Below, one piece after another: positions 9,821-31,080 of a DNA stretch of 64,000 nt; the first letter of the stretch is position 1; every line of letters begins with the position of its first letter. Location: the IMG/VR virus record IMGVR_UViG_3300045125_000127; one strand, 5' to 3'. The notes beneath the pieces are model-generated. The model was not told the origin of the DNA and did not search any database. It was given only the letters and a program-made list of their open reading frames with translations. The DNA is from a virus. A program made the position numbers and the translations under genes.

Positions 9821-11567
9821 ATGGCAAACAAGAACCTGTTTCAGAGCGCATCGTCTTCTCCAGTCCGTTCCGGCGGCTGACACCGTCAACGAGGCGGGCG
9901 GGAAGGCGTACAAGATGGAGAGCAAGCACGCACTTGCTCAGTTCGTTTCTACTTCGTGCCTCAACGGTACGTTCTACACTTCCGACAAGGATCAGTTGGA
10001 AATTGTCAAGAAGTTGATGGTCGATTGTGACCCAGAATTTCTGGGCAAGTTGGCCGTTTACGGTCGGCAAGTGTCTTTCATGAAGGACATGCCGTCGCTT
10101 CTGTGTGCATATTTGGCCGGTGAGGTCGGTAAGGCGGGCGTCAAGTCTGAAACTCAGGACCGCAAGACGGCGGTTTTGCGCAAGATTTTCCCTCACGTCA
10201 TCGACAACGGGAAGATGCTTTGCAATTTCGTACAAATGGTACGTTCGGGTCAGTTCGGCCGGAAGAACATGGGGCACTGCGCCTCGAAGTTGGTTTCCGA
10301 GTGGTTCGAGAGCCGCAGCCCGGCTTCGATTTTCCGTCAGTCGATTGGCAACAACCCGTCTTTGGGCGATGTCATCAAGTTGACCCGTCCGAAGCCGAAC
10401 ACGCCGGAGAAGGCGGCTCTGTTCGCATACCTGTGTGGCTCGAAGATCGAAACCGACGGCGAGGGCGGGAAGCACCTTCGTTCGTACTACAAGGACATCA
10501 AGGACAACACGGTTAAGCTGGCCCACCAGCACCCGTTCGGTGCCCTGCCGGAAATCGTATTGGAATACGAGGCGTGGAAGGCCGACCGCACCCGTCCGAC
10601 TCCGAAGTTGGACTTCGATTCCTCGACAACGAACCGCTGACGAAGGAACAGTGGCGAGACGTGGCACGCAACGCAAGTTGGAAGACCACGATGTACAAGC
10701 ATGAACTCGTTCACCCGCAACGGGGTGTTCGAGGATGCAGGCGGCTCGTTGACATTATTGCGGCTCGACTGGCTAACGCCGAAGAGGTCGCAAAGGCCAA
10801 CGTGTTCCCGTATCAAATCCTTGTCGCTTATCTTGCGTCCGAGGGCGAAGGTTCCGTCGAAGGTGCGTGACGCCCTGCACGACGCAATGGAGGCGGCGAC
10901 CGAGAACGTCCCGACGTTCGAGAACCGTCGGCTCCGTATCATGCCCGACGTTTCGGGGTCTATGACTACGGCTCGTGTCACTGGCACGAGGGACAAGGGC
11001 ACGGACAAGAACGGCAAGGAGTGGGACACGTCCACGATGGCTCGGTGCATCGACGTGGCCGCACTGTTCACGGCTTCGCTGCTTCGCACGAACCGGGACG
11101 CCGAGGTTCTGCCGTTCGAGATTGGGGTCGTTCCGGTCGCACGGTTGTCGTTGGAGCCACGGGACACGGTGATGACTAACGCCAAGAAGTTGGCGTCGAT
11201 TGGCGGCGGTGGTACGAACTGTGCCGCTCCGATGAACTTGCTGAACCAGCGTGGCGACCGTGCCGACGTTTTGGTTTATATTTCGGACTACGAATCGTGG
11301 TTCGACGGCCCGAACTCCACGAACGGCAAGGCCAGAGTTGATGAACCAGTGGAAGGTTTACAAGAGCCGCAACCCGTCGGCACGACTGGTGTGGATTGAC
11401 CTGACCCCACGGCCAACGGTCAAGTGCAGCAGCGTGAAGACATCCTTCAGGTTGGCGGGTTCTCCGACAACGTGTTCTCGGTCGTCAGTCGATTCGTCGC
11501 TGGCGGCTGGAACAAGGACTTCTGGGTGAAGGAAATCGAGTCAATCGACCTCGACAATTTGCAGTAA
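9821..11567 (+). CDS. Ro60/TROVE-domain RNA-binding protein with VWA C-terminus (frameshifted)
   Basis: TVNEAGGKAY...HALAQF...LNGTFY, FMKDMP, MVRSGQFGRK, VFPYQIL, DVSGSM, GGGGTNC, ISDYESW, VGGFSDNVF: bacterial Rsr/TROVE signature. Confidence 0.92.
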
Positions 11568-11571
11568 TCAC

Positions 11572-11598
11572 AAAGCCCGGCTTCGGCCGGGCTTTTTT
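11572..11598 (+). terminator. rho-independent terminator
   Basis: AAAGCCCGGC-TTCG-GCCGGGCTTT plus T-run after TROVE stop. Confidence 0.85.
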
Positions 11599-11612
11599 GT
11601 TTACAACTGTTG

Positions 11613-11723
11613 CGGCACGAAAGCCCCTACCATCTCTAAAAAGAGATGGCTACCCCCTAAGCGAGCGACCGAAGGGAGCGAGAGCGTGGAGTAGCCCTCT
11701 AGGGAGTAGGGGATGAAGTGCCG
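11613..11723. mobile_element. IS200/IS605-type terminal palindrome (expanded)
   Basis: Nested inverted repeats CGGCAC/GTGCCG, CCCCTAC/GTAGGGG, CCATCTCT/AGAGATGG, GGCTAC/GTAGCC; minus strand reads TTCATCCCCTAC...GTAGGGGCTTTC. Confidence 0.5.
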
Positions 11724-11759
11724 TGAACAGGAGAGCTACTCCGAATTGTCTCAAAATAC

Positions 11760-12098
11760 ACTGAAAGGTGTTATAGGCTATTCCGGTGTGGATAGCCCGC
11801 CCGCTAGGGATTTCCTGAAGTGTTCCGTGTCTCTTCCATCCGTACAACTCGAACAGTGCCTCTTGATACTTCGTCTCGCTCGTATCAGGATATACCTCCC
11901 GGTAGTGCTTCATCCCCACGTCCGACTGCATGTACTCCAGTAATCGAGCCTGAGCCTCTTGCTTGGTCCGAGCCGCGGGACCGTAGAAATTCCCGATAGT
12001 ACCATCAACGGCTACCGGAATTTCTTGAAGTTCGCAAAAGGTTGCTGGAATGCCTGGAGAAACGTAATCACGGATGATAATCGGCTTGAATTGATCAT
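11760..12098 (-). CDS. hypothetical protein between tnpA and palindrome (frameshifted)
   Basis: ...GPAARTKQEAQARLLEYMQSDVGMKHYREVYPD... Confidence 0.4.
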
Positions 12099-12126
12099 AT
12101 CAGCCTCCACACCTATTTTAGTGTAC

Positions 12127-12541
12127 TCAGCCCTGTTCTTCGATGTACTTCTTGATCGTCTCCGTACTGGCGTTGCCAGTGGTACACGCGAAGTACCCGT
12201 CGCTCCAGAAGGTTTTCTCCTTCCAGAAGTGATACTGGAGCAGGATATCATGTTTCTTCCAAATGTGGAAGGTGGACTGTGACTTCAACCGAGTGGCAAT
12301 CGAAGTCGGGGACAGGGCAGGTGGAGCATCGACAAGGACGTGGATGTGGTCAAGATCGACTTCCATCACGTCGATGACGAAACCGCTTTTCTCTGCGATC
12401 TGGTTGAACAGTTCCTTGATGTCGGCGGTCACGTCAGCGTTCTTAAACAACTTCTTCCGATGACTTGCAGGCGAAGACGAAGTGGTACTTCAAGCAGATA
12501 CTGCTGTGACTGGCGTGGTGGTACTCGTCTTTCTTCGGCAT
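12127..12541 (-). CDS. tnpA: IS200/IS605 Y1 HUH transposase (frameshifted)
   Basis: LKYHFVFACK, DHIHVLV (HUH), FWSDGYFACTTG...IKKYIEEQG. Confidence 0.92.
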
Positions 12542-12831
12542 GACACTACTCCTTCCGTCGAACAGGGGCTTTGGTAGTCGGAAACGACACGCTCGAAGTG
12601 GGTGACACGAACTCTGGAAATCAACACGCTCACGAAAGTCCTGAGCCAGTCTTTCAGGTGCGAGCTTCGACCACAGCCAGATCGACGGCGAGATCATCTT
12701 GGTCTTGTTTGTCGTGGTCGTGGGTGCGTCGATCTCGATCAACTTCTCGATATTCAGGGTCGGGTCATCTTGCCCAACGAGTTGCACTTCGCACTGGTAA
12801 TGGACTTCGTGCATGGCGTTCTCCAAAGCTG

Positions 12832-12858
12832 AACAAGCCCGGCAAAGCCGGGCTTGTT
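12832..12858. terminator. 12-bp perfect hairpin, likely terminator
   Basis: AACAAGCCCGGC-AAA-GCCGGGCTTGTT at the end of the minus-strand RR-signal gene pair. Confidence 0.7.
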
Positions 12859-12861
12859 GAT

Positions 12862-13474
12862 CGTCAGGGCGAATCGTTCCAGATACTTGCCCCTGCTCCA
12901 GAACCATCGCCACTGGATCAAGAAACCGTTTTTGTTGCTACCATAGAAAACCACTCGATCCTGCCCGCCATCAGATCATCCATGAACCGCCAGATTAAAG
13001 AACTTGCTTGCTCAGGCTTTCCATTGAACTTGAGCGTGTGGCACTCGTCCGGGGTCTTCTCGTAGTGCAGAGAAAGTGAAGGCGAAAGTCAGGCGGATTT
13101 TGTTCTCGCCCACCAAGTCCATCGAGACGCACTTGTATCCAGCGTCCACGCCCTCACAGTACAGGTTTTGCACTGGAGATTTGACATGGAAGTAGGCACA
13201 CGAAGTCGTAAAGGGAACTTCGTGACACGAAGTCCTTCCAGTGGAGCATGTCCGTCGGTCGGAAGATGAACGACAGAGTGTGGACGTTGCTCTCGAAGTG
13301 ATCGGCTTCTACTGACCATTCAAGCGGTTGTCGCACGCCGTTATGGATCAGTCCCCACTGTACGATGTGCTTCGGCTTGGTCGTTGACGTGTGTGTCGCT
13401 TGCTGTTACGGTTGCTGCGGGCAGCACTCTATACTCGTTGCCGCCATCGCTTTTAATGCGTCTCGCCTGTTCAT
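12862..13474 (-). CDS. twin-arginine-signal protein, paralog 2 (frameshifted)
   Basis: MNRRDALKAMAAT...KHIVQWGLI...PLEWSVEADHFESNVH. Confidence 0.6.
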
Positions 13475-13499
13475 CTCACTCTCCTGTTTAAGTCTTAGT

Positions 13500-14133
13500 T
13501 TAAGCCTCAGTGCCGAACAGTTCGAGGATTCCAGATGCCCGCCCGCACGTCCCTTCCTTCCACTTGATGATGGGTAGTCCTTGTCGTAGCGAGACAGACA
13601 AATAGGTGATCTTGTCGCTGTTCAGGTCATTCTCGAACCGCTGAATGACCGATTCGATGCCTGCGGGGGTGTCCCTGATCTTGATCGAGCAGCAGCCGTC
13701 GATGGTTTGTTCATGGGGAAACTGGTTGATGAAAGTTAAGGCGAACTTCATGTGGATTTTGCCGCCGTCCACCCTTCGACCCAGATGCACCTGTAACCAG
13801 CGTCGATACCGTCGCAGTTCAGGTTGCCGTTAGGAGACTCGACGTGGAAGTGGTACGCATGTCCCTTCTCGATGGCGTCCCCGAAATGATCCTTCCAGTA
13901 GTAGTTCGGAGTCTTCGGCAAGATCAGCTTTTTGGGGCGAACGTGAAAGACAGTGGTGGACGTTGCTGTCGAACTGATCTGCTTTCACGGACCACTCGAC
14001 CGGGAGACACACGCCTCGCTCGATCAGCCCCCATGAGACAAGATGCTTCGGTTCGTCAGCCAGCACTGCGGTCAGGGTTAGCATCCCGATACCCGTCGCC
14101 GCCATCGACCTGAGGTGCGTCACGCCTGTTCAT
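13500..14133 (-). CDS. twin-arginine-signal protein, paralog 1 (frameshifted)
   Basis: MNRRD(A)LRSMAATGIGMLTLTAVLA...KHLVSWGLI...PVEWSVKADQFDSNVH. Confidence 0.6.
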
Positions 14134-14149
14134 TTTGTTCTCCCAAACA

Positions 14150-14603
14150 TGGTATTCGTCATCGTCCCGAACCACACCGACCCTTCATTCCGGCTTTGCC
14201 GAACAACTTATCGAACACCGCAGCACGCTGACCAGTCGGTCCTTTTCTGTGCCGTCCACGGTCTTCGACGCTCAGCAGTATGCACCATCCTCAACCCCTG
14301 CCGTCGAGAGGGCTTTCCCGAATTCCTGCAATTTCCGCATCAAAGGCATGGTGCTTGCCTGAACCGACTTAGACACGGTGGAAGATCTGCACCCAAGTCG
14401 TTTGGTATTGAAAAACGCCACGATGACGTAGGGGATGCTGCTGGCGTTGTCTGGCTCACGCAGTTGGGCGCATAGATGGTTTTGTCGAGGAACGGTATCC
14501 AGTACACGCCGTTGTCGGGCTGGATGTTGCCGAACACCGTCTGGACTACTTGGTGCAGGGCGTCCTGTTGTTCGTCGTTTTCGAGCCATGTCTTGAACTG
14601 CAT
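14150..14603 (-). CDS. putative internal head protein (frameshifted)
   Basis: Starts MQFKTWLENDE; ATAGATA motif 5 nt upstream. Confidence 0.5.
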
Positions 14604-14696
14604 ACGGTATCTATCAAGTTCAGAAAAATTCCGATTTTCGTCCCAAAACCGAAACCAGCCACACTAACTAATGCTGAGGAGAACCAGCGTAAGAAC

Positions 14697-15790
14697 ATGA
14701 CCCTGTACTCGTACCGCTACCGCCTGATGCCCAACGCCAACCAGCGTAGTCTTGCTCGCCAAGCACTTCGGGTCGATCCGGTACACCTACAACCACTTCC
14801 TCGCTCAGGAAGGAAAAGTACCTTGCCGAGAAGAAATCCTCGAACTACTACGGAGACTGCAAGGTACTCACGGAATTGAAGAAGACCCTGCCGTGGATGA
14901 AGGGTGTACTCGCAGAGCCTCCAGTTCGCCATCAAACAACTCGACGCCGCCTACAACAACTTCTTCGCTGGCAGGGGACGCTTCCGGAAGTTTAAGGCGA
15001 AACACACCAATCAGTCTTCCGCATCCCACAGAACGGTGAAGGCGGTCGAGATAGAAGCCGGTCATTCCCGAAGTTCCTCGATGGTGGTCAAACTGGTCAG
15101 GCGTCTTCGGATCGACAAGACTGGTTCGCCACACGATCGCAGGAACGCTGGCAGTACCACGTCAGCATCACCGTGGAGCGGGATATCTCGAACCCGAAAC
15201 TCGAGCTACCGAAGTCGGCGGACTGGGGATTAAGACGCTGGCGGTGTACGACGGCAAGGTGTACGAGAACGTCGTTTCATGCTCGGACACTGGCTTCCTG
15301 GCGGTTGAAGATGGTGCACGCACCTGAGCAAAGAAAAAGAAGGGCGAAATAGGAGCGAGCCAAGAAACGGCTCGAAGCCAAGATGCACCTGCGGATCAAC
15401 ATCAGACGAACCATATCCACTGACGATGAAGAAGATCATCAACGAGAACCAAGTGGTGATCCCGAAAGTTCATGGTTCGGAACATAGCCGACGCAAATCA
15501 CCAACCTGCAGGTGCGATAGCCGATGCCCTGTTTCGAGATCACCAGCAAGAGTACTAAGGCGAAGTGGTATTGGCGAAGCAGTTCGGTTAGATCGGTGGT
15601 TTGTCGAGCAAAGACGTGTTCTGGCTGGCCGTGCGGATCAACCAGAACCAGAAGTTGCCGATCGGCGGTGGTTGCCAGGTTGGTGGAAGATCACGACCGG
15701 GACATAAACGCCGCCACATGATCTGCAGCAAGCGACAAATAGAGCGCAGAGTACCGCTGAGCGGCGGGAATTAAGCGTGTGACTCAGGGA
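14697..15790 (+). CDS. tnpB: IS605-family TnpB RNA-guided nuclease (heavily frameshifted)
   Basis: YRYRLMPN...HFGSIRYTYN HTH, DLGIKTLAV-like RuvC-I, zinc finger and HDRDINAA C-terminus. Confidence 0.88.
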
Positions 15791-15885
15791 AGAACCTTTT
15801 CGCTGAAATTTCAGCCGCTGGAGGTTGATACATGAAGCCCGCCCCTTTAGGGGCGGGTAGTTCACAAGCCACCAGTGGCGTAGTA
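15720..15885 (+). ncRNA. TnpB omegaRNA / IS605 right end
   Basis: GAAG-CCCGCCCC-TTTA-GGGGCGGG-TAGTTCAC ending at 15865; following bases (AAGCCACCAGTGGCGT...) would be the guide; 5' boundary approximate. Confidence 0.7.
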
Positions 15886-17012
15886 TCCCCGCGTCCAAGA
15901 AAAGCAAGCGAAAGAAGCGGGTTGCCAACCTCTCCCAAAGAAGCAAACAAGCGAAAATTAGCCAGGCGTGCCGCCGTGCGAAAACAGGGCAAGGATTGTG
16001 GGAACGGATCATGGCACGGGAGCGTGCTTTAGGGCAATGACACCGAACTGAAAGTCGCCCCGCCGGTTGACGAAGCATTTTGGTTGTTTCCACGGGGTGT
16101 GTTGTGAGAGACGTTCCAAAGTTTTTGATGACGGCCAAAGACATCGACCGGCTAAAGGAAATTGTCACAAAGTCTCCACGGACAGGCCGGATGCAACGGC
16201 CGAAGAATGCCGAGTGCTGTTCGGTGCAATCGGCTATCGAACGGTTATGGAAATGCTGGCTGGGGCTGGTTGCGTGACCATTACGGAGTTGGCCTGTAAT
16301 GCATCTTTCGTCTGTCCGGTCTGTATAGCTACCTCCCGCGAAAAGGAAGAAATGCTGCCGAATATCCAAAGCGCCCGGAGTGTTGCAGCGGATTTGCCAT
16401 GACATCGAGGTAGTTGAGTACGAAAAAAGCTGAAGGCGTCACGGCCGAAGACCTGACCAAAAATGTACGACAGCCTGATCGACAACACCAAGTTCAGAAA
16501 AGCTTACTGAGAGCAGATTTGCCGAAGGGTCAAATTTATCGAGGCGAAACGCACATGAAACACGAACTCCGTAGGTCTTCCACTACGACGATCAACAATC
16601 GTCGGTGTGTGTTTGACATATTCATTTATCAAACGACGGAAAGAAGCACAGCCACGGAATTGAACTCGAACAAAGCGTCTAACAGTTACCAACGCCATTG
16701 AAGACATTGTGACCATTTTTTCGAGACTCGGCCCGATGCATAGCCGGATAATGTGCGTCGGTTGTCGAACGGTACGAGGACAATCCGGCAAGATTGATCT
16801 TGTGTCGCTCACCGTGGGGACCGGATTTACCAAGCCCAATTGGTCACGAATTGCCGGTGTCGTTGCCGACAAGCCGCTTTCCGCCGTTGTTACTACTTCC
16901 TGGAGGGCGAGGATGCCGTTCCTCTAAGCGACGACGACCGTAACTGCATGCTGGGCCGTCAACTGGCGTGCGGGTGCGGCATTCGTCCGGGCAATAAAGA
17001 CTACCGTCGTCA

Positions 17013-18249
17013 GTGACGAGCTTTTCATTGAGTGGTATGCCGGGCTGCGAGAGGTGCGACAAATCACACAACGGCCACAGACTCTACCCCCGTGAAGACT
17101 TGACCCCTGACGGGTGGCTTGCGGTCAACAATAAAAGCCGTATACCAGTTCTCTATACCCATCGTGGTATTGGGGGAACCGAAGAAGATAAAAGACCCCA
17201 ACGCACCCCGATTCCGACGACATGCTCCTTCCGGCAGCTATATTCGCCAAACTTGCCGGTCATCTGACATGCTACCCGAACGTCAAAAGGCACAAAGCCT
17301 AGAGGCGGCAATCGGAAGATTTTCGACCCGTTTACAACGAATTATTTCAGGATACCTTCGTAAACAAACGCATGAGCCGTATCATTCTAGAATTCAAGTC
17401 GTGGTTTTTGGTCAACGAAGAGTCCGCATCCGATAGGTGGACTCCCTTCTGCCATGCAGAGGGCTATTTACAAAAAACTACGTTGACACCTATTCGGAAA
17501 AGGGCTTGAAACCCTGGACTTGGGACGAATTCATCTGGCGGGCCACCAAATGGCAAATGTACGGCACTTTGCCAAGGGTCAACGCCGAAGGGCAAGAAGA
17601 AGCACCCGAAAGAACTGGCTATGTGACGGCCAGAGATGAGCATGGAGTCACGAAACTCACCGGTATGCAGGGTCCGAGCGCCAAAGCCAAATTCGATGGG
17701 CATGAAGGAATTGGCAGAAACGGGCAAGCCCATTTGGGGTGCAATGGACAAGGACTTTGTCGAGCGTCTGAAGAAGTTGGGCTTCTCGTCTCCCCCGCCT
17801 TCGGCAAATGGAAACTTTTGATGCCGATTATTCAACAAGATTCGATGTTCAGTTCGGGCGGCTCGTGGGGTTCTCTCAGCCCCGACGGCGGCATCAATTT
17901 CGATCTTTCCGGCGTAGGTGCAACTGTCAAATACTTCACCGGCAACAAGAAATTCTTCCGTCAGATGTTGGAAAAGCACGGCCCCAAAATGGGTCTGGAT
18001 GCTAAAATGCTCGGTATTTTGAAGCAGTGGGATTCAATTCCGGCCATGATGAAGCAAATGGCGATGCCAAAGATGACTGCCAAAGGCATCGACATGCAAA
18101 CTATGGATTGGCTCGGAGAGGTAATGTCGGATAGCCCGGCTGCGGTTAAGACGCCCGCCCCGGTTGCCCCGGTTGCCCCGGTTGCCCCGAACCCGGCTGC
18201 CCCGACTGGTCCGGCCGCTCCGGGTAGCGGTGTTGGGTTGGGTTCCTAA
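17013..18249 (+). CDS. putative internal head protein with PVA-repeat tail (frameshifted)
   Basis: Reconstructed start GTG-TSF(I)EWYAGLRE; 270-aa intact C-part; APVAPVAPVAP from GCCCCGGTT x3. Confidence 0.5.
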
Positions 18250-18771
18250 GTACATTTCGCAATAAATCATCTTGGTCCGCTTGGCTACGGTATTTGGACC
18301 GTCCATGCGGACCAATTTTTTGTAGTTTTCTCGGTCTATGAAGTCGTAGGTTCCCAAAACGAAAATCACTTTGCTAAGGTGCTGAGGGTTGCGAAAGAAG
18401 AATTCCGCTTCTTCTCTTGTGTATCGGCCATATTTTCCGCCCCTCATTGCATCATTCGGGATGAAAAACACAATCATTTTGTTGTTTTGCAAAATCTTGT
18501 TCAAAAATCGGTCTGTTACGTCAGGGGACGAAGTTTCACGTTCCCATTCTGGACCGAAAGAGTCTTCGTAGGCTTTGGGCCAGTCGATCATGTGAAAGAC
18601 TTTGGCGATGTGGAAGTAAACCTCTAGCCCTTCGACTTCCGACAATCCGAGTGCGTAGGCTCCGAACGCTTCGTGGGGCGGATTCTCCAAGAAGTCATTG
18701 ATCGACATGACTTTGTAAGCCTGTCGGAACATCATTTCAGGTACGCCGGATTTGGCTATGGCGTCCACCAA
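18250..18771 (-). CDS. hypothetical protein
   Basis: Long ORF; ATAAATA on minus strand at about 18839-18845. Confidence 0.55.
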
Positions 18772-18911
18772 ACGGGATGTGTCGCAGTAGGTCTTCGTCT
18801 ATTCTGTGGATATATTCGTAAAATGTCTGCATCGGTGATATTTATGCCAATCCTTCTATGAATACCACAAAGAGATTCCGATGTCAGGCGAGGCGTTTGA
18901 TGATTGAGAAT

Positions 18912-21900
18912 ATGGATTTCAAAGATTTCATGAATTTGATGGAGGGTTCCTTCACTCAATCAGATATTCCTGCGTACTTTTATGCCGGGATATATTTTTC
19001 TGACGATCTAGCTAAACGGAAATCATTTACCCCTCCGGGTGCTGTTGCTACGTTGGTCGGTTTGGAAGGCATCAGTAGTTCTTATACGATTTTGGGTTTC
19101 TGGCACGGTGCCGGTTTGAAAATGCCCGGCAAAGAGGTCATTCGCCTCAATAAATTGTCGAGGGTCAAATACGGTGATAAAGAATACTTCGGAAGTGGCG
19201 GTTTCCGATCAATTCGCCGAACAAGTGCAGGCTCCGGCGGGCCGACCGCCACTTCTTCCGGTCGTGGTTCTAGTGAGCCGTGGCTAACCTCTTTCGTTCA
19301 AGGCGTTCTACGTCAACTAGGGTATAAATTCAACGATGTGGGGGACGAATATAGACTTAAATTTGAAGACGGCAGTAGCATGACGCATTCTGAGGTAGCT
19401 CAGGCGTTGAAGAAGATCAAGACGCACCGCACCGTTGAAGACCCGGTGCCGGATCGTTCTGCTCTGTCTAAATGGCAATCGTCCCGGCCTTGGAAATCGA
19501 ACGAAGAACCAAATTACGTTAAAATGAGTCGCAACAGCTGCTGATTTCGCCGGTCGTTTTTATGCCATTCTCAGCGGAAAGGCGATTCCGGGAAAGAAGA
19601 TCAAAGACCCGGAACGTGTGTTGAGGCCAAGTTCGATGCAAGTCACCGGCAGCGAAATGGCTGTGCCGAAGGCTTTGATGAACTATTTGAAGCTTAATCC
19701 GTCGAGGGACGGCGATAAGACCCTCGAACAAATCGGCATAAGAAAGTGAAGAATTTTTTGCCCGATTCAGTTTGCCACGCCCTCGCAAGAAAGAATTGAT
19801 TGCTTGGGTTAATGCTCACATTGACTCAAGTTTCAACGAGTTGATTCACCATTTGAAAGCGAACGTAGCGAAAAATTTAACGATTTTGCAGAGCATAGTT
19901 CGTGATGCGTTTAGCGTTGACACGTCTCACCAAGGCGAACACGAGTGGATCATGAAGCGGCAATTGGTTCCGAGTGCCAGAGGGTTTCGGTGTTCTTCGT
20001 GTCAGGCTTTTATTCGTTTGAACGGCGAACAAAATCCGGGTGATACTGCTCAAGTGTCCGAACTGGCGGGACCGGAGAACACTATTCCTAACGACCCGAA
20101 GTATCAGGCTCGTCCGATGCTCCACATCCCGGAAGGGTCTATCCTTTTCGTTGACCGTTCTCCCGGTTAAAGATTGGTTCCGTCCGATTATCGAACAGTA
20201 CAAGTCGATGCACCCGGACCAAAATGTTACTTCGGACCAAGAGTCTAAAATTGTTGTCGAACACTTCAAGTTGTTTGACAAATATGATGTTCACTTTGTC
20301 GCCAGCAGGAAGAAGCCCAGACGCAGTCTCAAGCCTCTACAACCAAACGGCCTCACGATCCGAGCTACGGTGAAACTAGCGCCAAAGTCCGTGCCATTGT
20401 AGATCGTGGTGTTCACAGGATCGAACACATTCAGAAATTGATGGAAAAGAAGTACGGCGTTAATGGCACTAAGGTCAAAGCCATCATCAACCGGTGGGAA
20501 AAGCTCGGCATGGCGAAAGTCGAGAACGGTTCTGTTACCATTGAGAACCCCGATTTCGATGAGGGGTCGATGATTGTTTACACATTCATCAAGAGCAAGG
20601 AAGGTGTTACCAAGCACGAAATCGAGATGGCAACAGGCATTACAGGCCCGGACATGGAATCCGCCCTTCACAAGTTGAAGGATCAAGAAAAGATTCAAGA
20701 ATTGCCCGGCGGCAAATACGACATCAAGCTGAACGACGAAGAAATGAATCACATTTCTCCGGTCGAGGACGAAATCTTGGATGTTATTGAAAATTATTCC
20801 GTTCGTGAATTCCGGGGTGTCCGTCAAAAGATGTCGAATCCGGGTACGTATACCGATGCACAAATCAAGGATCACTTGCGTATTCTGACTCTGAAGAGGA
20901 GGATATTCAAGGGTCCGTTGAGCGACTACCTGCGACTGACGATCAACAACGATCAACCGTTGTCAGAGGGCGAGAAGAATTTGCTCGGTTTCATGCGGGA
21001 GTACCCGATGACCGACGCCAACAGTTTGTATCACGAATGGCCGAACGTTGACCGTGATGAAATCATTAGGAACGTCGAAAAACTAGCCGCCAGAAGCTTG
21101 CTGGTCATCACGGATCATGACGAAATTCGTCTCAATACCAACAAGCTTCAGCCTCTTGAAAATGCCAAGGGTCACACCAAGTTGGCCGGACGCATCATGG
21201 AAGTGCTTAACGATCACTACTACACTTATCCGAACGAACTGTCTGGACAGATGCCCGGATACGATTACTACTTTTTTAGTGGCGTAATCGACAAGTATAT
21301 GGACAAAGGGCTGGATCAAGCGTGACCCGGACACTCAGCGGTTCACAACGGATCACTCGCTGCCACCAGCCGAAACTGTTGAAGGTAAAAAGTCCTAGAA
21401 TATTTGACGCAACACGACGCCGCAAAAGAAACTGACATTAAGAGCGAGTTGAGTCATCTTAATGGCACTACGAGTACAGCACGGTCAGTCGATTGCTTAA
21501 ATCTTTGAAAGGCGACAAGATCGAGAGTTTCTATCACCCAATTGAGGAAACTACTTTGTGGCACTTGACCGAGAAGCCGTACAAGCTCGATTTGAGTGAA
21601 TACAAGGGAGAGGATGAAGGCCGTGCTGGAAGAAGCGAAGCGGCCTCTGAATTTCTGGAAAATTGAAGAACATTACAACGAAAAGAATCCCGACAAGAGA
21701 CTCTCGGAAGAGGGCGTTCGGTTTGTTCTTAACGCCATGTTGAAAGACGATCACAGCGTAGTTAAGACGAAAGACGTTGCCGACGGAGAAGTGTGGCACT
21801 TAACTGACGCCGAAGGGCCGAAGGACATTAACCACTACAAGGAATTGGTGCGTCAGTTGTTGACCAAACACGGCCCGATGACATCCGGCGGTCTTAACGA

Positions 21901-23310
21901 CAAACTGATGGAAGAACACCACGTCGTTTACGACGTGGCGGAATACGTTATTGACCAAATGAAGGAAGCCGATCCGCCCGAATTGGTCAGTGAAAGCGAC
22001 GAATTCTTGTACTATCCGGCGGTGCGTCTCCCCGACCAGCACTTGCCGGTCCTGAATGATTACATGGAACGTATTTACAAGATGATTCAGCACGAGCCGA
22101 TGAATTCAGGAGACATAAGAAGAAAATAGCACTGAGGTTTACGGAGCAACGCTGAAGTCTTCGGCGATTGCCAACAGCATTCTGTCGCCGCTAATGAGTT
22201 CGGGCAAAATTGTGGGCACGAATATGCCGAACGGGTACGTTACGTTCCACACGCCAGAAATGGACCCGAACGACCAGTATTACAAGAAAATCATCGACTT
22301 CATGAAAGAGGACGAAAACAAGGACGGCCCTGTATCCGCCCGTGCCATTTACTATCACATGGACTACAACGTCGGTATTTCCTCCTCGAAGGTCAAGGGC
22401 TTCTTGGCTAAGATGGTCGAAAAGGGCACGATTTACAAGAAAGACGCCAAGGGCGGCGTCGTTTACTACTCGTTGCAGCCCAACATGGAAGTTCAAGACA
22501 TTGGAGACATGGTTCAACAGTACGTCAAGAAACTGGAAACCGATCAGGGTTATCAGGGCGTTTCCGCTTATACGCTCAATGATTTCTTGCAGAAACACAT
22601 AGACGAAGACGCCGACCCAAGAGAAGTCTTGATGGACATGGTTGACGACGGCAAGATTCAAATCTTGTCCGGCCAGCACAGCGATTTCTGGTACACGGTT
22701 CAATTTACGGCTCAGATTGATCCGGTTTCGTCCGAGGCTAAACACTCTGAAGAAGTCGAGGAAGCCAAGAATTATATTGAGCAAATGAAGTTCATCCGTC
22801 CGCAACGACTTGGTCAAATACTTGGGTTCCGGCAAGAGAATACGCAAGTTGATTATGAGCATGGTTGCCGACGACAAGTTGTGGCCGATGAACAGCACTT
22901 CGGAACAGGACTGGATGTCCACTGCCGTTTACTCGAACTCGCCGCCGAAGTCGGACGAACAATGGGAACAAGAGATTGTCAACTTCTTGAAGGGTAAGAA
23001 TGCGGCTTATAGTCCTTACAATATTTCTACCCAATTGATGAAGTTCGAGCCGTCCGAACGGGTCAAGAAATTGCTCAAGAAATTGGAATCCGAGGGCAAA
23101 ATCAAGAGCGTTTACAAAACCGAGTACGATTATTGGTACAACAATACTTACCAATATGTGGCTCCACTGCCCGCTGGTTTCCCATTGCCGGGCAAGCCGC
23201 AAGGCACGCCGGTCCAAGCGACTCAGCAGCCACAAGACGCCAACCACTGGACTGGCGCATCGGCCGATCCGAATGCCGACAATGATGTTAAGCCGGGGCA
23301 ACCTACCTAA
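18912..23310 (+). CDS. ~1,450-aa protein: CTS-like start, N-terminal domain, ~13 tandem winged-helix domains, P/Q tail (multiple frameshifts)
   Basis: ORFs 18858, 19772, 20040, 20438, 21596, 22194, 22810 overlap in shifting frames with no intergenic gaps; repeated ~65-aa units I/V-xx-FL/YL...helix-turn-helix...L-xx-L-xx-xG-x-I...W/Y. Confidence 0.7.
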
Positions 23311-23394
23311 CGGCACCGAACCAGAAATTTGGTAATTGACAGGGTGCGGTACTAATGTAAATTAAAGTACCGCACCCTCGCCGAAAGGAACGAA

Positions 23395-23942
23395 ATGGGC
23401 TGGCCCTTCGAGCATCATCAAGACGGACAAGTTTTCCTCCACATGAACAATTGGGCGGATTTCAAGCGACACAAAGATTCTGGCGCAGAGTATCCTCACA
23501 ATTGGCTGCACAGGCGATTGTTCGTTCAGATTCATTCGCCACGAGCGGATTTGAAGCAAGTGCCGATCCCGATTGAAGAAGGATCGCTATTTGTCCGCAA
23601 CTCTAGTCGTAAGATTAACTGTGTCTCCGACGACTGGTCGGTAATTTTTGAACCTTACCCGGCTTTCGTTCGCACTACTTCCGACCTAAATGGCAATCAA
23701 CCTTCGTGGCACATTTGGTTGGAAGACAAACACCAAAAGCCGACCTACGGCGAACCCATGACCCTGTTTTCGACCGGTATGAATTTGGGTTCCGGGCACG
23801 ATAATTTGTTCGCATTTTTCCGGGACGCCTATTGGTACGTTGAGCAATTTCACGACTACGGACTCGGCACCAAACGTCCTCAAATTGAAGAGTTGTGTCG
23901 AGTCGGCACCAAAAACGACTTTACCGCAGCATTGACGATTGA
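23395..23942 (+). CDS. hypothetical protein ending TK(K)RLYRSIDD*
   Basis: One extra A in the A5 run at 23911-23915 joins the ORF to KRLYRSIDD* (TGA 23940-23942), just before the next ATG at 23981. Confidence 0.6.
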
Positions 23943-23980
23943 TGCTTTACAACCGAGCAAATTCGTGGTAGGATCGCATC

Positions 23981-24630
23981 ATGGAAACCCAAATTCCGCT
24001 AGTGTTGGTTCCCACCCCTTCGGGCCGCTTGCTTCGTCACAAGCGAAACAAAAGGTACGGCAGCGGCGTTGCTATTTGGCAAATTAAGGCGTCCGTCGTT
24101 CGATCAAGTCGGGTCGAACGAGGTATTTTCTTAGTTTCCCAAATGTGGTTTTTCGTTTCGAGTACCGAGACAAGTACGAAGCAAGGGACGGGTCCAAGGA
24201 CAACTTGTTGCTTCGCAAGGTTTCTTGCGCCTTCATTACTGCCGACAGCCCACGGTCCAGCACAAAGGTTTATTCTCCTCCCTTGGGGAATGTGGACAGC
24301 AGCTTGCGAGTGTGTATTTCAGGAATACCCATTTACGCCAAGACGGTTGAGGAATTGTGTCGTAAGGCCGTGGCGGATTTCTGGAACAGTCGTTTCAATT
24401 TCGACATAACCGACGCCTTGGAAGACTATCAATACGAAAGAGAAAACAAGCGTTTGTCCCTTTCTTCTTACAAGAAATGGCACAAACGTACTGAGGCCGA
24501 ACCCAATTGGACGCCCGGTTGCAAAGACATGGTCGAGTGGGCCGATTTCGGCCAGTTTTGTAGAATGGATACGGATTCAAATTACGACCGTTCTGACTAC
24601 GACGACTACGACTACGAAGAGGAATACTAA
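23981..24630 (+). CDS. prokaryotic E2 family D-like (PRTRC protein B-like) protein (frameshifted)
   Basis: PNVVF...VYSPPLGNVDSSLRVCI...FWNSRF...WHKRT pattern. Confidence 0.5.
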
Positions 24631-27200
24631 TGGGATCGCACAAGGACACGTTGCTCCTTCCCAAAACTACTCTTCCCATTCAAGCTAACTTGCCGACCAA
24701 TGAGTCGGCTCGTTACGCTTTATGGGGCGACGTTTATACTCGAATGAAGCGTGACGGCGAAGACCCGTTCATTCTTCACGACGGCCCTCCGTATGCTAAC
24801 GGCAATATTCACATCGGTCATGCCCTCAACAAAATCTTGAAAGATTTTGTTGTCAAAACTGCTTATTTCAGCGGCCGGGCGGTCGAATTTGTGCCGGGAT
24901 GGGACTGCCACGGGCTGCCGATTGAACAAAAGGTTCAATCGGCATGGCGGCTCGGTGGGCCGATGAAGAAATCCGACAGCGGCCGTGGGCTTACGCCCAT
25001 GTCGATGGAAGAGGCGAGTGTCGATTTCATCTCGATGTGTCGCCGCTATGCCGCCGAACAGATCGCCAAACAGAAGGATCAGTTCAAGTCTCTCGGCGTT
25101 GTCGCCGATTGGGAAAACAACTACGAAACCATGAGTCCGGCGTTCGAGCAAATGATCGCCGACAAACTGTCCGAACTTCGGGACAAGGGCTTGCTAGTTC
25201 GTCGCCGTAAGCCGGTGTATTGGTCGTGGCCCTACGGTTCGGCTCTCGCAGAGGCCGAGGTCGAGTATCGGGAGCGAACCGACAAAACGGCATATGTTTT
25301 GTTCAAAACCGACAAGTTCCCTTGGGGCTTGCTCGTCTGGACTACTACGCCTTGGACTTTGCCCGCCAACGTCGCCGTCGCCCTGAACCCAAAACTTCGG
25401 TACGTCGCCGTTCACGTCAAAGACCAAGATTTGCCCGTCCTTGTTGCCGCCGATACGGTTGACGCCCTCGCCAAGAAGGGCATCGTGATCGACACGGTAA
25501 AGGGTTACGAAGCCGAAGGTGCCGAGTTCGAGGGTGGCGGTTTCAGCACCCGATTTACCCGGACCAGACGGTGCCTTGTGTGATGGCGGATTTCGTAGCT
25601 CCCGACGCCGGAACGGGGTGCGTGCATATTGCCCCCGGCCACGGCGAAGAAGACTATTTGGTGGGGTTGAAGTACGATTTGCCCGTCGTGATGCCCGTCG
25701 GCCCTAACGGACGTTACGCCGAGGGAAAATACGGCCCGTCTGAAAAGTACCCGGACGGTTTATGGATTTACCAAGACGATTCCAACGAGTCGATGGCCGC
25801 TGTCGCCGACGGAACGTACAAGAAGTGTTCGTACCAGACCAATGAAGTAATTTTCGCCGATTTGAAGCAAATGGGCGTTCTGGTTGCCACCGAAGACGTG
25901 GTTCACAATTATCCGTACTGCGCCCGTTCCGATACGCCGGTCATCTTCCGTGCAACGGAACAGTGGTTTTTGATTTGCCCCAAGTGCGTGAGAGTGTTCT
26001 TGAGGCTTTGAAGCCGGTGGAGTTCTATCCGCAGACGGCGAGCAATCGGATGATTCCGATGTTGAAGAATCGCCCGGACTGGTGCATCAGTCGCCAGCGA
26101 AAGTGGGGCGTTCCCATTTTTGACGGGCCTGATATCCTCGACGTGTGGTTCGACAGCGGGCTGACTTGGACTATCTTAAATGGTCGTCAAGCTGACCTTT
26201 ATTTGGAAGGGAACGACCAACACCGTGGCTGGTTCCAGAGCAGTTTGTGGTTGAGTGTAGCCCTTACGGGCAAGGCTCCCTACAAGCGTGTGGTTACTCA
26301 CGGGTTCGTGGTGGATAAGAACGGTCACAAGATGTCCAAACGCAAGGGCAACGTTATTGACCCCAATACCGTTGTGAGCAAATACGGTTCGGAGGTCTTG
26401 CAGTTATTGGGTCGCCACTACCGATTACACCAAAGATGTTTCAGTCGGCGACGAAATTCTGGCTCGTGCCGCCGAGGGGCACAAGAAGCTTCGCAACACC
26501 CTTCGGTTTTTCCTAGCGAATATCAACGAAATGCCGGTTCCGGCTGAGGGTGATCCGGTCGGCCTCGAAAGCTGGATTCTGAACGAGGCCCGCACGGTGT
26601 TTGACGAAGTGTATAAGGCTTTCTGTTCGTTCGAGTACCACCGTGGGATGTCGAAGTTGACGGAGTTCCTGAACGGGGATTTGAACTCCATCTATTTCAA
26701 CGCCATCAAGGACTGCCTGTATTGTGATCCGTTTGACGGTGAACGTCGCAACTCGGTGGTGCGGGTTCTGTCCACGATTCTGGAGAGCCTGTTGGGGTTG
26801 ATCGCCCCGCTGTTCACTTACACGGCCGACGAGGTGTTCTCGCACGCCCCTGACTGGTTCAAGGGTGGGCGGAAGGATATTTTCGATTTGGTTTATACGC
26901 CGATCCCGGAAGGGTCGAAACCGGCGTTCGATGCTGGCTATTATCGGCAGGTCTTGACTGCATTCCACGCTGTATTTGATGGTCTGAAAACGGCCGGGTC
27001 CGTCCGTGACACGTTGGAAGTGGTTTAGAGTCCAGCCGCAAGTTCACCCCATCGGCCAAGGACTGGTTGGTGGTAAGTGATGCGACCGCCATTACGGACA
27101 GTCCGGCTCTGGCCGGAGTTTATGGTGGACGACGACGTGTACAGGATCGGAAAGTGCCAAACAAGTGCGAGCGATGCTGAAACGCAACGCCCAGAATTCC
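24630..27200 (+). CDS. ileS: isoleucyl-tRNA synthetase (frameshifted)
   Basis: [74 protein letters not shown]-terminal KCERC. Confidence 0.95.
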
Positions 27201-27279
27201 TTGTGTTTTGCCGTGAAAAGGCCGCAGTGATTTACAACCCCAAGAATCTGTGGTACATCTTGGGCACGGAGGGTCAATC

Positions 27280-27885
27280 ATGGCTAACAAAAGCATCCAT
27301 CATTGGTGGCGGCACCGTAAGTCACGTCCGCAATCACCTTGACCGTGCCCCCGCCTATGGGCGAACGGCTCGCCGTCTACAAGAGCTTCGCCCGTAGAGC
27401 GATATGGACGTTCAGTCCATTTGACCAAATGGCAGGGGGCGATGTTCTGGAGACAAACCGGGACATCGCGCCCTACTCTCGTTTGGTCGATGACCCCACC
27501 ACCAAGATCATTTTCATGAACGCCGCACTGGCAGATTTTGCCGGTGCGCATTGGTCTTGTGCCCAGCGGAAAACACGAACGCTTGAGGCTGAGGCGACGA
27601 CCTTGAACTTCCGTGGTTGAACGAGCGGTCGCTCACTTGTTCCCGAGCCCAAGTTGTTGGGCGAGATTCGGAAGACTCGTGAGCGACATTTTCCTGTCGG
27701 TTTCAAAACCACAACCGGCCAGTGAAGACGAGCGTATTTTGCTGCACTAAGGCTCTTGAAGGAATCGTCCTGTAATTGGTGTTGGCAACGACGTGGTCAG
27801 CACGAACCAACATGGTTGTTTGCCCGGAAGAGGCAATCGATACCACGTTACCAGGACCGGGACGAGGCTTTGAAGGTCTTGTAGG
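27280..27885 (+). CDS. CoaB/DFP-like (phosphopantothenoylcysteine synthetase-like) protein (frameshifted)
   Basis: IIGGGTVSHVRNH, IIFMNAALADF, VGFKTT, LAND. Confidence 0.5.
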
Positions 27886-27887
27886 AC

Positions 27888-28637
27888 ATGGCTCTCAAAC
27901 GTAGCCATTTGACATTTACTCGCAGTATCGGTAGTGGCGGGCGATCCCGTTCCGCGGGATTCGCCTATGGGTTCCCGCCGCACTTCCGGACTGTGGTGAA
28001 TCACTGCATTGGCGAGGGGGCGTGCAAGCCTTTCCGTGGTGCGACCGTGGGTCATTTTGCTTCTCTGTAAGTTGGACGAAACCATCGTTCTTGACGGAGC
28101 ATTCGCAAGAGTAATTTCAACGACTTGGACAAGAACGGTTTGGTGAAAGTTAAGCACCGACGGCCCCGACAGCGGCATTGATTGCCTACGGCAGCAAGCC
28201 GAGTGTGGGCGGGCAGAAGTCGGCGGACTCTGGTTCCACGACTGCACAGCTGAGCGGCTAATCTTCTCGTGTGGTTCACTTCCACTGTCCCAAGCGGGCC
28301 GGGAGGTGAAGTTCCGACGGTTTCTCAAAGAGAATTCGAGTGCGGCTCCCTAAACGAGTGCGGCAAGAAACAAATTTCCAGCAACGGGTTGAAAAAGATT
28401 CGGCAATGGGAGCGCTTGTGTATTTGGACGAACACGGCCCGAACGTCGTGTTCCACAGCAGCGATTGACCCGAAAGAAGTGATTTCTTTCATCGGCGCTC
28501 AACTTGACCTTCCAGGCCAAGACCGGCGGCTACGTTACGGAGCGGGCCAAATGCACGCTAATTGCAAGTGTCGGCTGTGTCAGTCGAGCGGGCTTCCGGT
28601 CTTCACCCAGAAGGTTGCCGAAGCCAAGTTTGCATAA
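27888..28637 (+). CDS. hypothetical protein (frameshifted)
   Basis: Chain of overlapping plus-strand ORF fragments. Confidence 0.4.
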
Positions 28638-29014
28638 GGAACAAAATGAGTTGATGGATAAATACAGGTTGGATCGTGCACATAACGGTGTTGCTGGCGA
28701 CATTAGCGACTACCCGTTGGGCGGCGCAATTTCCACACGCACGGAAATGGCAGAGAACTTCGGCACACTCGATCTCGCAGAGTTGTGTTCCCCGTTGATC
28801 CGCAGATCGTGCATTCGTTGTTTTGGAACGTGTTCAATCGGATTATGGAAGGGGAACAGTTCAAGGACGGCGACACCGCCGGAGCGATCGCCAGTGGCGG
28901 CTACCTTGTGAAGTTTGTGGACGCAATTGAAAATGGTCGTCCCGTGCTTCGCACATTATTTTGCTGCGGACGAGCGACGGTAATCTCGGCCGTGACACCC
29001 TGACGACGGGTAGC

Positions 29015-29626
29015 ATGGCCCAACAGTACGACGCGATATTTTTTTTGAGCAATGTCAGAGATTCTTAGCTTTTACCGAAAACGAGTCCGTTCCTTGTGGC
29101 GGATTTCTCTGAACATAGTTAACCGTTGGTCCGGACCAGCATGTGGGAGCAGAGTTTTCCATGATTTCATTCAGTGGCTCTTTCCAGCTGAAGACCCCTA
29201 GTAATTTCAACCCTGACGCCCTGCTTTTGACCGATGACGACATTGAACAGTTCGTCAAATGCAAGGACTTAAGGGGCAATGTCTTTCAGGCGTTTATCCG
29301 CTGCATGAAGTTCCTTTGGGCCTGAACGGGCGGTTGGTTTGGCGGGACGGTCCACGAGCATTCCACTAAATGAGGTGCGCGGCCGTGTCAAAGGGCCGAC
29401 AACTTTGCCGAACGTGAAGAGGTTTTGGTCGAAAATCAACCACAACTGGCCAGCGGACTCACACTGGGTTCTGGCGAGTCTTCTTTGGAGGATTGCTGAA
29501 ACAGACGACCCGCTCGCCGATGCGTTTTTTCAGGGTGTCTGTGCGACCTGTATAGCAGACGGGTACAGGTTCCGCCGAGGAAGTTTTTCTTACTGGCAAA
29601 AAGCCTCAGAAGGTTTGATACAGTGA
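29015..29626 (+). CDS. OGFr (opioid growth factor receptor) N-domain protein (frameshifted)
   Basis: HDFIQWLFP..TPSNFNPDA..LT...LRGNV..AF...MKFL..NHN. Confidence 0.75.
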
Positions 29627-29642
29627 TGAATAGATATTGCTG

Positions 29643-30115
29643 ATGAACTTTCGAGAATGGCTAATTGCTGAAGAGTTGGGGGGATCGGCCTCAAGACCCC
29701 GGACGAACTGGACTTGTTGTGACAGCCGCAGGGCGTTTCTCGACACCAGAGCGCTGTGGTGGCGTTACGGTAACATTGTGTGTGGCCCCGGTCCACGATT
29801 GCGGCCCAAGACGTGTGACGCCCTCGCTATCCGGTCGTCCGTTGCCGGAACCGATAAACGCCGTCGATGCCATGCACCGCAAACAAAGCACGACATCGAA
29901 TATTGCAATGTGCGGGACGGGCTGGAAGTCCGGGTTACGGTTCGGGACATCTTCGCCGTGTTCTCTGGACGCCGATAAGCGACTGCATCCAGAATTGGAA
30001 AACCAATTTGAAGGGGTTGCCTTTGGGCTGCAAGCACTCAGCGTCCTCAGCCATTAGAACCTATTTCAACATGCACGTTGGGATGAGAGGTCGTCGCGGA
30101 AGCCTTCGCCGGTGA
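29643..30115 (+). CDS. putative internal head protein (frameshifted)
   Basis: Starts MNFREWLIAEE; ATAGATA upstream. Confidence 0.5.
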
Positions 30116-30474
30116 TCGACCAGTTGAAGGACTTTCTGGAGACGGCGAACGACCAGTGGGCGGCTTCGCCAATGGCTCTCAGTGACGACAAAATGAAGGT
30201 GCGCGTCCGCAAGGGACGGCACTCATATTGGCGACGGGCGGCGTAACTTCCGGCAAGAAAATGTCAACTACTCTGGACATTGCGGCCCGTCGAAGCGTAG
30301 GAAGAGAGCTTCGTGGAACCTTCAAGGAATTCCTTTATCAAGCTTCGCAGTCAAATCCGTGGGACGGCATTTATGTGGAATGCGTACACAACCCACGTTT
30401 GGCTGCTTTTTTGATTCGTGAACTTTGGGTTCCGATTAACGAGGTGGGAATCTTTTTACCTTCCCAAACCGCAT

Positions 30475-30715
30475 GTTGAAAAAAGCGAATTATCAGGGTC
30501 TTAGCGGCCCTTTCACAATCGAATATGATAGCGAAGCACCTTGCCGATTCTGCGGCCTTGCTGTAGAAGAAGCTTCTGTGGGTGGGACGGATGTGTGTCC
30601 TTGGTGTGACTGCGGTTATCACAGGGCGGGACAAGAATTTCGTACCGGGAATTACTTAAGGGAAGAAATGGCAAGGCGAAGATTAACCCGCAGCAGTTCG
30701 GGACGCAAGTGGTAA
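30475..30715 (+). CDS. small zinc-finger protein
   Basis: PCRFC...VCPWCDC. Confidence 0.55.
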
Positions 30716-30716
30716 G

Positions 30717-30947
30717 TTGTTGAAAGCGGCTCACATCACTTCGGAAGTGTTGGCCGAAAAGAGCGGTCTGGACGTTGAACGTGTTCGGAGCATCGAATCC
30801 GGCACGGTGGGAAAAGGTCACAAAGAAGGACTGCAACCATCAACAAGTGCTTCAGATTCCGACGCCGTGGTTCAGTTTTTGGGAGTTGAGAGCGGCAAGG
30901 GCTTTCTTTGGTGGCCGAAGCGACTCAGGCGGCGATCATCGCATTAG
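30717..30947 (+). CDS. XRE-like HTH protein
   Basis: ITSEVLAEKSGLDVERVRSIESG. Confidence 0.55.
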   Translation: MLKAAHITSEVLAEKSGLDVERVRSIESGTVGKGHKEGLQPSTSASDSDAVVQFLGVESGKGFLWWPKRLRRRSSH

Positions 30948-30988
30948 TCGTTGCTCAATCTCAGAACGGCAAAAAGAAGAAAAAAGAA

Positions 30989-31024
30989 ATGATCGAAGGT
31001 GATTAGCGGCGGGCAGACCGGGGC
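30989..31024 (+). pseudogene. orphaned first 12-13 codons of the MoCo-carrier/SLOG gene
   Basis: ATGATCGAAGGTGATTAGCGGCGGGCAGACCGGGGC = MIE(K)VISGGQTGA with one base missing; same peptide as at 31621. Confidence 0.75.
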
Positions 31025-31080
31025 AAGCTTTAATCTCCTAATTTGCCCACCAAATTGACTTCTTGTCTCATACATAAGGC

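Follow-up and report, generated by a model that had tools for sequence, protein, structure and literature searches.

Phages make very large proteins that string together unrelated modules, the polyvalent proteins, which are predicted to be packaged and to enter the host together with the DNA (Iyer, Burroughs, Anand, de Souza and Aravind 2017; PMC5512222), and the Alt protein of phage T4 is an injected phage enzyme (PMC5512222). Many different winged helices in one polypeptide are found in the largest subunit of eukaryotic TFIIIC (TFIIIC220/tau138); human TFIIIC220 has nine of them, four of which read DNA while the others serve as scaffold (PMC11811891). Here, we describe a gene with similarities to both, located in a 64,000-nucleotide stretch of viral DNA (IMG/VR virus record IMGVR_UViG_3300045125_000127, hereafter the window). 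The gene (positions 18900..23310, + strand) encodes a single protein of 1,472 amino acids (aa), in which a conserved N-terminal domain (residues 1-481, hereafter the head) is followed by an array of 13 consecutive winged helices (residues 482-1472). Polyvalent proteins carry several enzymes, whereas this protein combines one enzyme-like domain with a zinc ribbon and 13 binding modules. In contrast to the array, the winged helices of TFIIIC220 are split by a long flexible linker and come without an enzyme-like head, and there is no sequence similarity between the two. The parts of the protein are of known kinds; the head family is undescribed, and a search of the literature found no report of a combination of this head with such an array. 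The reading that we favour, although tentatively, is that an uncultured huge phage encodes a single modular protein in which an enzyme head is targeted by a winged-helix scaffold.

The gene is a single open reading frame

In the window, the gene appears as seven + strand open reading frame (ORF) fragments in three frames (18858-23310). The same fragmentation is seen throughout the 64 kb, where no ORF exceeds ~400 aa, and this pattern is typical of an assembly rich in insertion and deletion (indel) errors. Used as a query, the largest fragment matched only itself, and its 90% protein cluster also includes an intact protein of 1,472 aa (P0004), encoded by a single ORF at positions 10001-14419 of an independent short-read Logan contig with 98.9% identity (L001). 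The wider alignment of window and contig, 17.7 kb in length, has an identity of ~96% and contains 279 gap openings. Within the gene, the window differs from L001 by 14 one-base indels (9 insertions and 5 deletions, at 19539, 19741, 19754, 20049, 20065, 20074, 20162, 20308, 21308, 21387, 21465, 21606, 22129 and 22802), 49 substitutions and one in-frame 12-nucleotide (nt) repeat indel. For seven of the 14 indel sites, there is additional sequence in contigs of four further metagenome runs (lake water, activated sludge, wastewater and freshwater sediment), which at all seven carry the L001 version and at none that of the window. The ratio of nonsynonymous to synonymous polymorphism (pN/pS) between the gene copies of the two strains, indels ignored, is 0.23. 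Since an intact copy exists, all covered indel sites agree with L001 and pN/pS has this value, the seven fragments represent one real ORF; the frameshifts are errors of the window assembly, and the ORF is subject to purifying selection.

These results bear out the original prediction, in which the seven fragments had been joined into one ORF of ~1,450 aa, the actual length being 1,472 aa; that real stops split the gene is contradicted by five independent assemblies. The start predicted at 18912 has to be corrected to the ATG at 18900, which is preceded at a distance of six nt by a GAGG ribosome-binding site (18890..18893, +) and whose Met aligns with the starts of the homologues. The stop codon is the TAA at 23308-23310. 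We also considered separate small genes or a pseudogene, for which the broken frames of the window are the only argument; this candidate was rejected, as the frameshifts are contradicted by the five assemblies and the gene is under purifying selection, and we regard it as extremely improbable. The indel density of the window relative to L001, a short-read contig of a close strain, is ~1 per 63 bases, so gene calls on this window need a polished copy, such as L001, which is the cleaner reference for positions 15860-33414.

The head is a previously undescribed domain family

A profile of residues 1-481 retrieved 290 proteins at E<=1e-3 from 1.84 billion cluster representatives. Most family members are stand-alone proteins of ~300 aa, and some embed the head domain in proteins of 700-3,200 aa. 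The layout of the protein described here recurs in about a dozen giants of 800-1,600 aa; full-length relatives measure 1,229-1,462 aa and are 28-41% identical. The phages that carry the giants are huge, uncultured and from freshwater and wastewater habitats. None of ten family members checked bears an informative name, and no Pfam or PHROG model matches the head domain or its stand-alone relatives. In 50,697 deposited phage genomes, tblastn with the head domain, a stand-alone relative and the array detected no homologue of either half of the protein, and blastn of the gene against deposited phages gave no match. Pattern scans of viral_contigs with a fragment and with alignment A2 produced no confirmed relative, Pfam searches of the seven window fragments gave sub-threshold matches only, a profile search of PDB sequences with the head family retrieved designed helical proteins only, and a language-model look-alike search returned no usable match. 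The head is a family not described before, comprising ~290 sequence clusters with an active-site-like motif and so far uncharted in phages.

The AlphaFold model of residues 1-481 (predicted local distance difference test (pLDDT) 86.7; predicted template modelling score (pTM) 0.80) consists, in this order, of a beta-rich N-lobe, a 220-residue helical insert, a strand opened by E349, a zinc-ribbon hairpin and more strands; the domain is basic, with an isoelectric point (pI) of 9.3. The N-lobe (aa 1-121; 18900..19262; this and all following parts of the gene on the + strand), defined by the model and by conservation in 104 sequences, contains the motifs E15-x-S17, D-I-P24-x-x-F27-Y28, G57-I-S59, M75-P-G-K, N84-K, Y91-x-N-P-x-Y96 and R107. 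The helical insert (aa 122-343; 19263..19927) is variable according to model and alignment, being largely missing in one relative (P0006) and far shorter in the 300-aa stand-alone proteins, and searches with its fold matched generic helix bundles only. Next comes the E347-x-E349-W350-x-x-K353 block (19928..19966), defined by conservation and model, which holds the most conserved motif of the family. The zinc ribbon (19979..20101) lies in the hairpin after the ExE strand; it was recognised by below-cut-off matches to Pfam zinc-ribbon models and superposes on LysW. Its C365, C368, C386 and C389 are the only cysteines of the protein; the second CxxC is lost from the window sequence through three false insertions. 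In the head region of one relative of 1,500 aa (P0009), as many as five CxxC...CxxC zinc ribbons are present, compared to one here, so that the number of ribbons varies within the family. The C-lobe (aa 401-481; 20102..20344; conservation and model) comprises strands with L407-x-I-P410-x-G-S413, followed by a small helix/strand subdomain.

Across the 104 family members, G57 and R107 are invariant, and E15, S17, P24, F27, M75, N84, Y91, N93, Y96, E347, E349, W350, K353 and P410 are nearly so. Judged from the sequences, such a set of conserved polar residues is typical of an active site. The EHEW motif to which the original prediction had drawn attention is real: it corresponds to E347-H-E349-W350 and forms the core of the conserved E-x-E-W-x-x-K. 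The suggestion that the N-terminal domain may be enzymatic was well placed too, as the head looks like an enzyme centred on this motif.

A possible relationship of the head to ADP-ribosyltransferases

The head is probably a catalytic domain, and its beta core is most like the ADP-ribosyltransferase (ART) fold. Among the top 50 structural matches, all six that span the beta core are of ART fold (Tpt1/KptA-type entries, CopC and two DarT). With the ARTs of the R-S-E class (T4 Alt/ModA/ModB, C3, iota toxin), Tpt1/KptA and DarT the head may share the split beta-sheet core of two three-stranded units, its best structural match, and with the R-S-E class also the placement of G-I-S and E-x-E. Enzymes of this class have S-T-S and E-x-E at the corresponding places; in the model of the head, G-I-S59 closes a strand that precedes a helix, and E-x-E is located at the start of a strand. 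The catalytic triad of the ART superfamily consists, in this order, of R or H in strand 1, S or Y in strand 2 and E in strand 5, the latter within E-x-E or Q-x-E in the R-S-E class. At the positions that would correspond to this triad, the protein has Y28, S59 and E347-x-E349. Among the 104 relatives, position 59 is S or T in 94%, E347 is kept in 96% and E349 in 97%, while position 28 is R in 14, K in two and H in one. The relatives with the strand-1 Arg (14/104) show F-R-V in this strand, then G-I-S and then E-x-E-W, i.e. the order R, S, E-x-E.

Several observations weigh against this relationship. Foldseek comparisons of the head model with PDB, AlphaFold DB clusters, Swiss-Prot, BFVD and the ESM Atlas gave no related fold, the exceptions being one uncharacterised 330-aa protein and a LysW-type zinc ribbon, and a second-look alignment on Foldseek's own list yielded helix bundles and the ribbon only. 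There is no sequence-profile link: at E<=1, the ART families of Pfam gave no match to the 104 members, and the profile search of PDB sequences contained no ART chain. The helical insert of 220 residues and the zinc ribbon further distinguish the head from the ARTs. Since the strand-1 residue of the giants is Tyr and not Arg or His, canonical binding of nicotinamide adenine dinucleotide (NAD+) is doubtful, and a neighbourhood with a PARP gene, described below, was found in one genome only. The link to the ARTs is thus weak.

We put forward a more far-reaching version as an unlikely, though not negligible, proposal. The head would form a new clade of the ART superfamily with R-S-E-x-E as ancestral form, in most members replaced by Y-S-E-x-E, and with a zinc ribbon located at the active site; the clade would be widespread in uncultured phages, both stand-alone and in polyvalent proteins. 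Through the array, nucleic acid or the host machinery for transcription or translation would be singled out for modification, perhaps once the protein has entered together with the DNA in the manner of T4 Alt. A new ART-type enzyme, if true, would add a player to the chemistry of phage takeover and counter-defence, and the giant form suggests a way of aiming such an enzyme at its target.

The array consists of 13 winged helices

The AlphaFold model of residues 482-1472 (pLDDT 84.5; pTM 0.50; 15 sequences used) shows exactly 13 consecutive helix-helix-helix-strand-strand units (20366-23166), followed by a disordered tail. The units have the three helices and the two-stranded beta wing of a winged helix, in a compact unit of 55-75 residues. 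The original prediction of about 13 winged-helix-turn-helix units at ~20380-~23150 is therefore confirmed with regard to both number and fold, the best PDB matches being multi-winged-helix proteins. The units, all delimited by the model, are WH1 (aa 489-547; 20366..20542; net charge +6), WH2 (20561-20725), WH3 (20735-20938), WH4 (20966-21133), WH5 (21179-21350), WH6 (21378-21567), WH7 (21595-21802), WH8 (21827-22027), WH9 (22052-22250), WH10 (22272-22472), WH11 (22500-22709), WH12 (22731-22935) and WH13 (22954-23166); comparison between units by hhalign additionally supports WH2 to WH11 and WH13. Thirteen contiguous winged helices, compared to nine in TFIIIC220, are to our knowledge among the largest such arrays in one polypeptide.

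When hand-cut units were compared by hhalign, the pairs 7-9 (96%), 7-8 (90%), 11-13 (78%), 7-10 (76%) and 5-6 (70%) were linked, WH7 to WH10 being the units most alike one another, and with the weaker profile-profile links included, a single network comprises units 2-11 and 13. The profile-profile comparison gave no sequence link to other units for units 1 and 12, which are winged helices by model only. For units 1-11, one-to-one counterparts exist in 11-14 of 14 relatives; for units 12-13, this number drops to 4-5. The one-to-one conservation of units 1-11 implies that each unit has its own role; the array is made of old, individually specialised modules and is not a recently amplified generic repeat. 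The Pro/Gln/Gly-rich tail (aa 1427-1472; 23182..23307) is disordered (pLDDT < 50). At 23196, it contains a polymorphism between the strains in the number of a 12-nt PQGT repeat, and it also has a Trp that the four closest relatives share and that could represent a short docking motif.

The array is acidic as a whole (net charge -29, pI 5.65), and its only basic units are 1, 9, 10 and 13. Unit 10 (aa 1141-1208) matches Penicillinase_R with 30.1 bits at a cut-off of 22.6 and is the only unit above a Pfam cut-off, sub-threshold matches elsewhere in the array being to MarR_2, RPA_C, ANAPC2, TrmB and GMT-wHTH. A MarR-type PHROG matches aa 530-599, across units 1-2, with an E-value of 9.6e-9, and a transcriptional-regulator PHROG matches aa 1352-1410 in unit 13. 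The only significant regulator-type sequence matches thus come from three basic units, and by these matches units 1, 10 and 13 resemble DNA-binding regulators. Most units are acidic and more likely hold partner proteins.

By Foldseek, the best PDB matches of the array are TFIIIC tau138/TFIIIC220, UFL1, DDRGK1, RPC62/RPC82, RPC34, SelB WH1-4, the C-terminal domain of Lhr, AlkX/YcaQ and Vps25. TFIIIC tau138/TFIIIC220 leads the list (8ffz_B with an E-value of 1.1e-6, then 9gc3_A and 8cli_A), with global template modelling scores of ~0.1, so only the type of domain is common and not the arrangement. UFL1/DDRGK1, which form the scaffold of the UFM1 E3 ligase, and the C-terminal WH1-4 of SelB follow with E-values of 1e-5 to 4e-4. 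Like the array, they are tandem winged helices, and their chains dock on the ribosome or on mRNA; they differ in having ~4-6 units and other partner domains, and a ribosome or RNA role of the phage array would be by analogy. An ESCRT-II-like scaffold, one of the options of the original prediction, fits less well, as Vps25 appears only at rank 43 and TFIIIC, UFL1, RPC62 and SelB rank higher.

Both types of matches bear on the possibility that the protein is a multi-site, sequence-specific DNA-binding regulator of transcription that reads extended or repeated sites on phage or host DNA, either used in the manner of TFIIIC220 or built from MarR/BlaI-like parts. The Penicillinase_R match of unit 10, the MarR and regulator PHROG matches of units 1-2 and 13 and the DNA-bound TFIIIC tauB among the top fold matches are in line with this; in TFIIIC220, DNA is contacted by four of the nine winged helices (PMC11811891). 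We consider such a regulator rather improbable, as only four of the 13 units are basic, as no matching repeated DNA site came to light, although no search aimed at one was made, and as the large conserved head domain would be left unexplained. The likeness to BlaI/MecI concerns positions 15-80 of the 115 positions of the profile; the dimerisation and signal-cleavage part of these repressors is absent, and the match concerns a single unit out of the 13 of the giant protein.

The matches to UFL1, DDRGK1, SelB and polymerase III subunits may instead be taken to mean that the protein is purely structural, i.e. a scaffold or assembly factor in which the head binds a partner and is not an enzyme, and in which the chain brings order to a complex associated with ribosome, RNA or polymerase, comparable to UFL1/DDRGK1 on the 60S subunit or SelB on mRNA. 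The missing strand-1 Arg of the giants would be consistent with this, as would the genes for L7/L12, Ro60 and aminoacyl-tRNA synthetase near the giant in three of five loci (see below), although these translation genes may only reflect the shared ancestry of related phages. The many invariant polar residues of the head (E, E, K, R, N, S and Y) point to catalysis over mere binding, and we judge a purely structural role to be unlikely, albeit worth keeping in mind.

Binding of Z-form nucleic acid had been suggested as well. The signature of Z-alpha domains consists of Asn and Tyr in helix 3 and Trp in the wing. Apart from the general winged-helix fold, nothing speaks for Z-DNA or Z-RNA binding via Z-alpha-like units: no Z-alpha protein is among the Foldseek top 50, and by eye no Asn-x-x-x-Tyr pair is seen in the listed third helices of the array. 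A Z-alpha array was therefore rejected and is most improbable.

In the reading that we favour, an enzyme head targeted by a winged-helix scaffold, the chain (residues 482-1426) would be a scaffold for targeting and assembly, comparable to that of TFIIIC220 or UFL1. The few basic units would bind nucleic acid and the acidic units would hold proteins, and the chain would dock the head on nucleic acid or on the transcription or translation machinery of host or phage. The head would then chemically modify the docked target, presumably during takeover or counter-defence. The pTM of 0.50 of the array weighs against this picture, as it makes the arrangement of the domains relative to each other uncertain.

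Polyvalent relatives and genomic context

The head domain itself occurs in polyvalent proteins. In larger proteins, it shares the polypeptide with ART-PolyVal, NUDIX, 2H phosphoesterase and Tpt1/PARP-like domains, and each of the 18 embedded copies that were inspected retains the E-x-E-W-x-x-K motif. Pfam includes domain families of large polyvalent proteins, and the head domain matched none of its models. One contig (L008, 1169-10256) carries three consecutive giant ORFs of 867, 1,156 and 1,002 aa, the middle one with head domain and ART-PolyVal and the third one with NUDIX, which looks like a gene cluster for polyvalent proteins. A distant family member without winged helices (P0023) is encoded directly after a T4-type portal gene and matches DarA_C with 29.3 bits at a cut-off of 27.

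The neighbourhood of the giants is of a different kind. In none of five giant-family loci (L001, L002, L004, L010 and L011) was a virion gene found within 8-10 kb of the giant; the neighbours are translation, NAD/ADP-ribose and auxiliary genes. In these loci, the giants lack the virion or late-gene neighbours, or the fusion to MuF or portal, by which polyvalent proteins are recognised. In L001, the context comprises two L7/L12-like genes, Ro60, a class I aminoacyl-tRNA synthetase, DUF4262, OGFr_N and cpYpsA. The block downstream of the giant is the same in L004, the giant of L011 lies between L12 and Ro60, and that of L010 is accompanied by a synthetase, a deaminase and TnpB. In the 587-kb contig L002, ClpX and CsrA are located upstream, a WGR-PARP gene directly downstream and an ADP-ribosylglycohydrolase gene ~4 kb further; this region (14253-19050) shows an ADP-ribosylation theme beside a possibly ART-like protein.

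These data also concern the central idea of the original prediction, namely that the protein is packaged by means of its N-terminal peptide, cleaved after L-M-E15 and injected, and that the winged-helix chain coats, protects or organises DNA. The occurrence of the head family in polyvalent proteins, which are predicted to be packaged and injected (PMC5512222), and the position of P0023 after the portal gene are in favour of packaging. The N-terminus also offers a tripeptide of the form L-x-E, which is that of T4 prohead-protease sites. T4-type internal head proteins share a peptide that is found in several packaged proteins and removed at L/I-x-E. Here, tblastn of residues 1-130 and 1-30 detected no second copy in the window or in L001, and no other window protein shares the peptide significantly, so that the predicted likeness of the start MDFKDFMNLME to those of other window proteins was not confirmed. 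An upstream protein of 287 aa with a look-alike start peptide was considered as a homologue of the head domain and ruled out, being unrelated by hhalign (probability 0.4%).

The N-terminal peptide is conserved in the giants. From about residue 12 on, the N-terminus is part of the conserved fold, including E15, the last residue of L-M-E15 and a conserved core residue, and S17, and this fold, with its N-terminal part, recurs at internal positions of larger proteins; nothing in these data supports a role of the peptide in capsid targeting or a cleavage after L-M-E15. The acidity of the array, the individual conservation of its units, in contrast to a generic coating repeat, and the lack of virion genes near the giants in all five loci argue against a DNA-coating packaged protein as well, and we give the packaging model little probability. 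The polyvalent relatives and P0023 keep delivery with the DNA open, by another route than the one originally proposed.

Adjacent features

The gene just downstream of the giant (window 23395-23942; L001 14504-15052) encodes 182 aa and ends with ...RLYRSIDD in L001. Between the two genes, 32 nt after the stop codon, there is a perfect 11-bp inverted repeat with a loop of 14 nt and no T-run (23342..23377, +). Read from the sequence, it may be a transcript-end hairpin; it was not called in a terminator scan of L001, and the promoter/terminator scan was uninformative. Upstream, ~4.2 kb of the window (11606-15860) are not present in L001. This segment contains a gene for an IS200-like Y1 transposase (PF01797, E 1.4e-27) at 12127-12450 on the minus strand and is probably an IS200/IS605 insertion in this strain.

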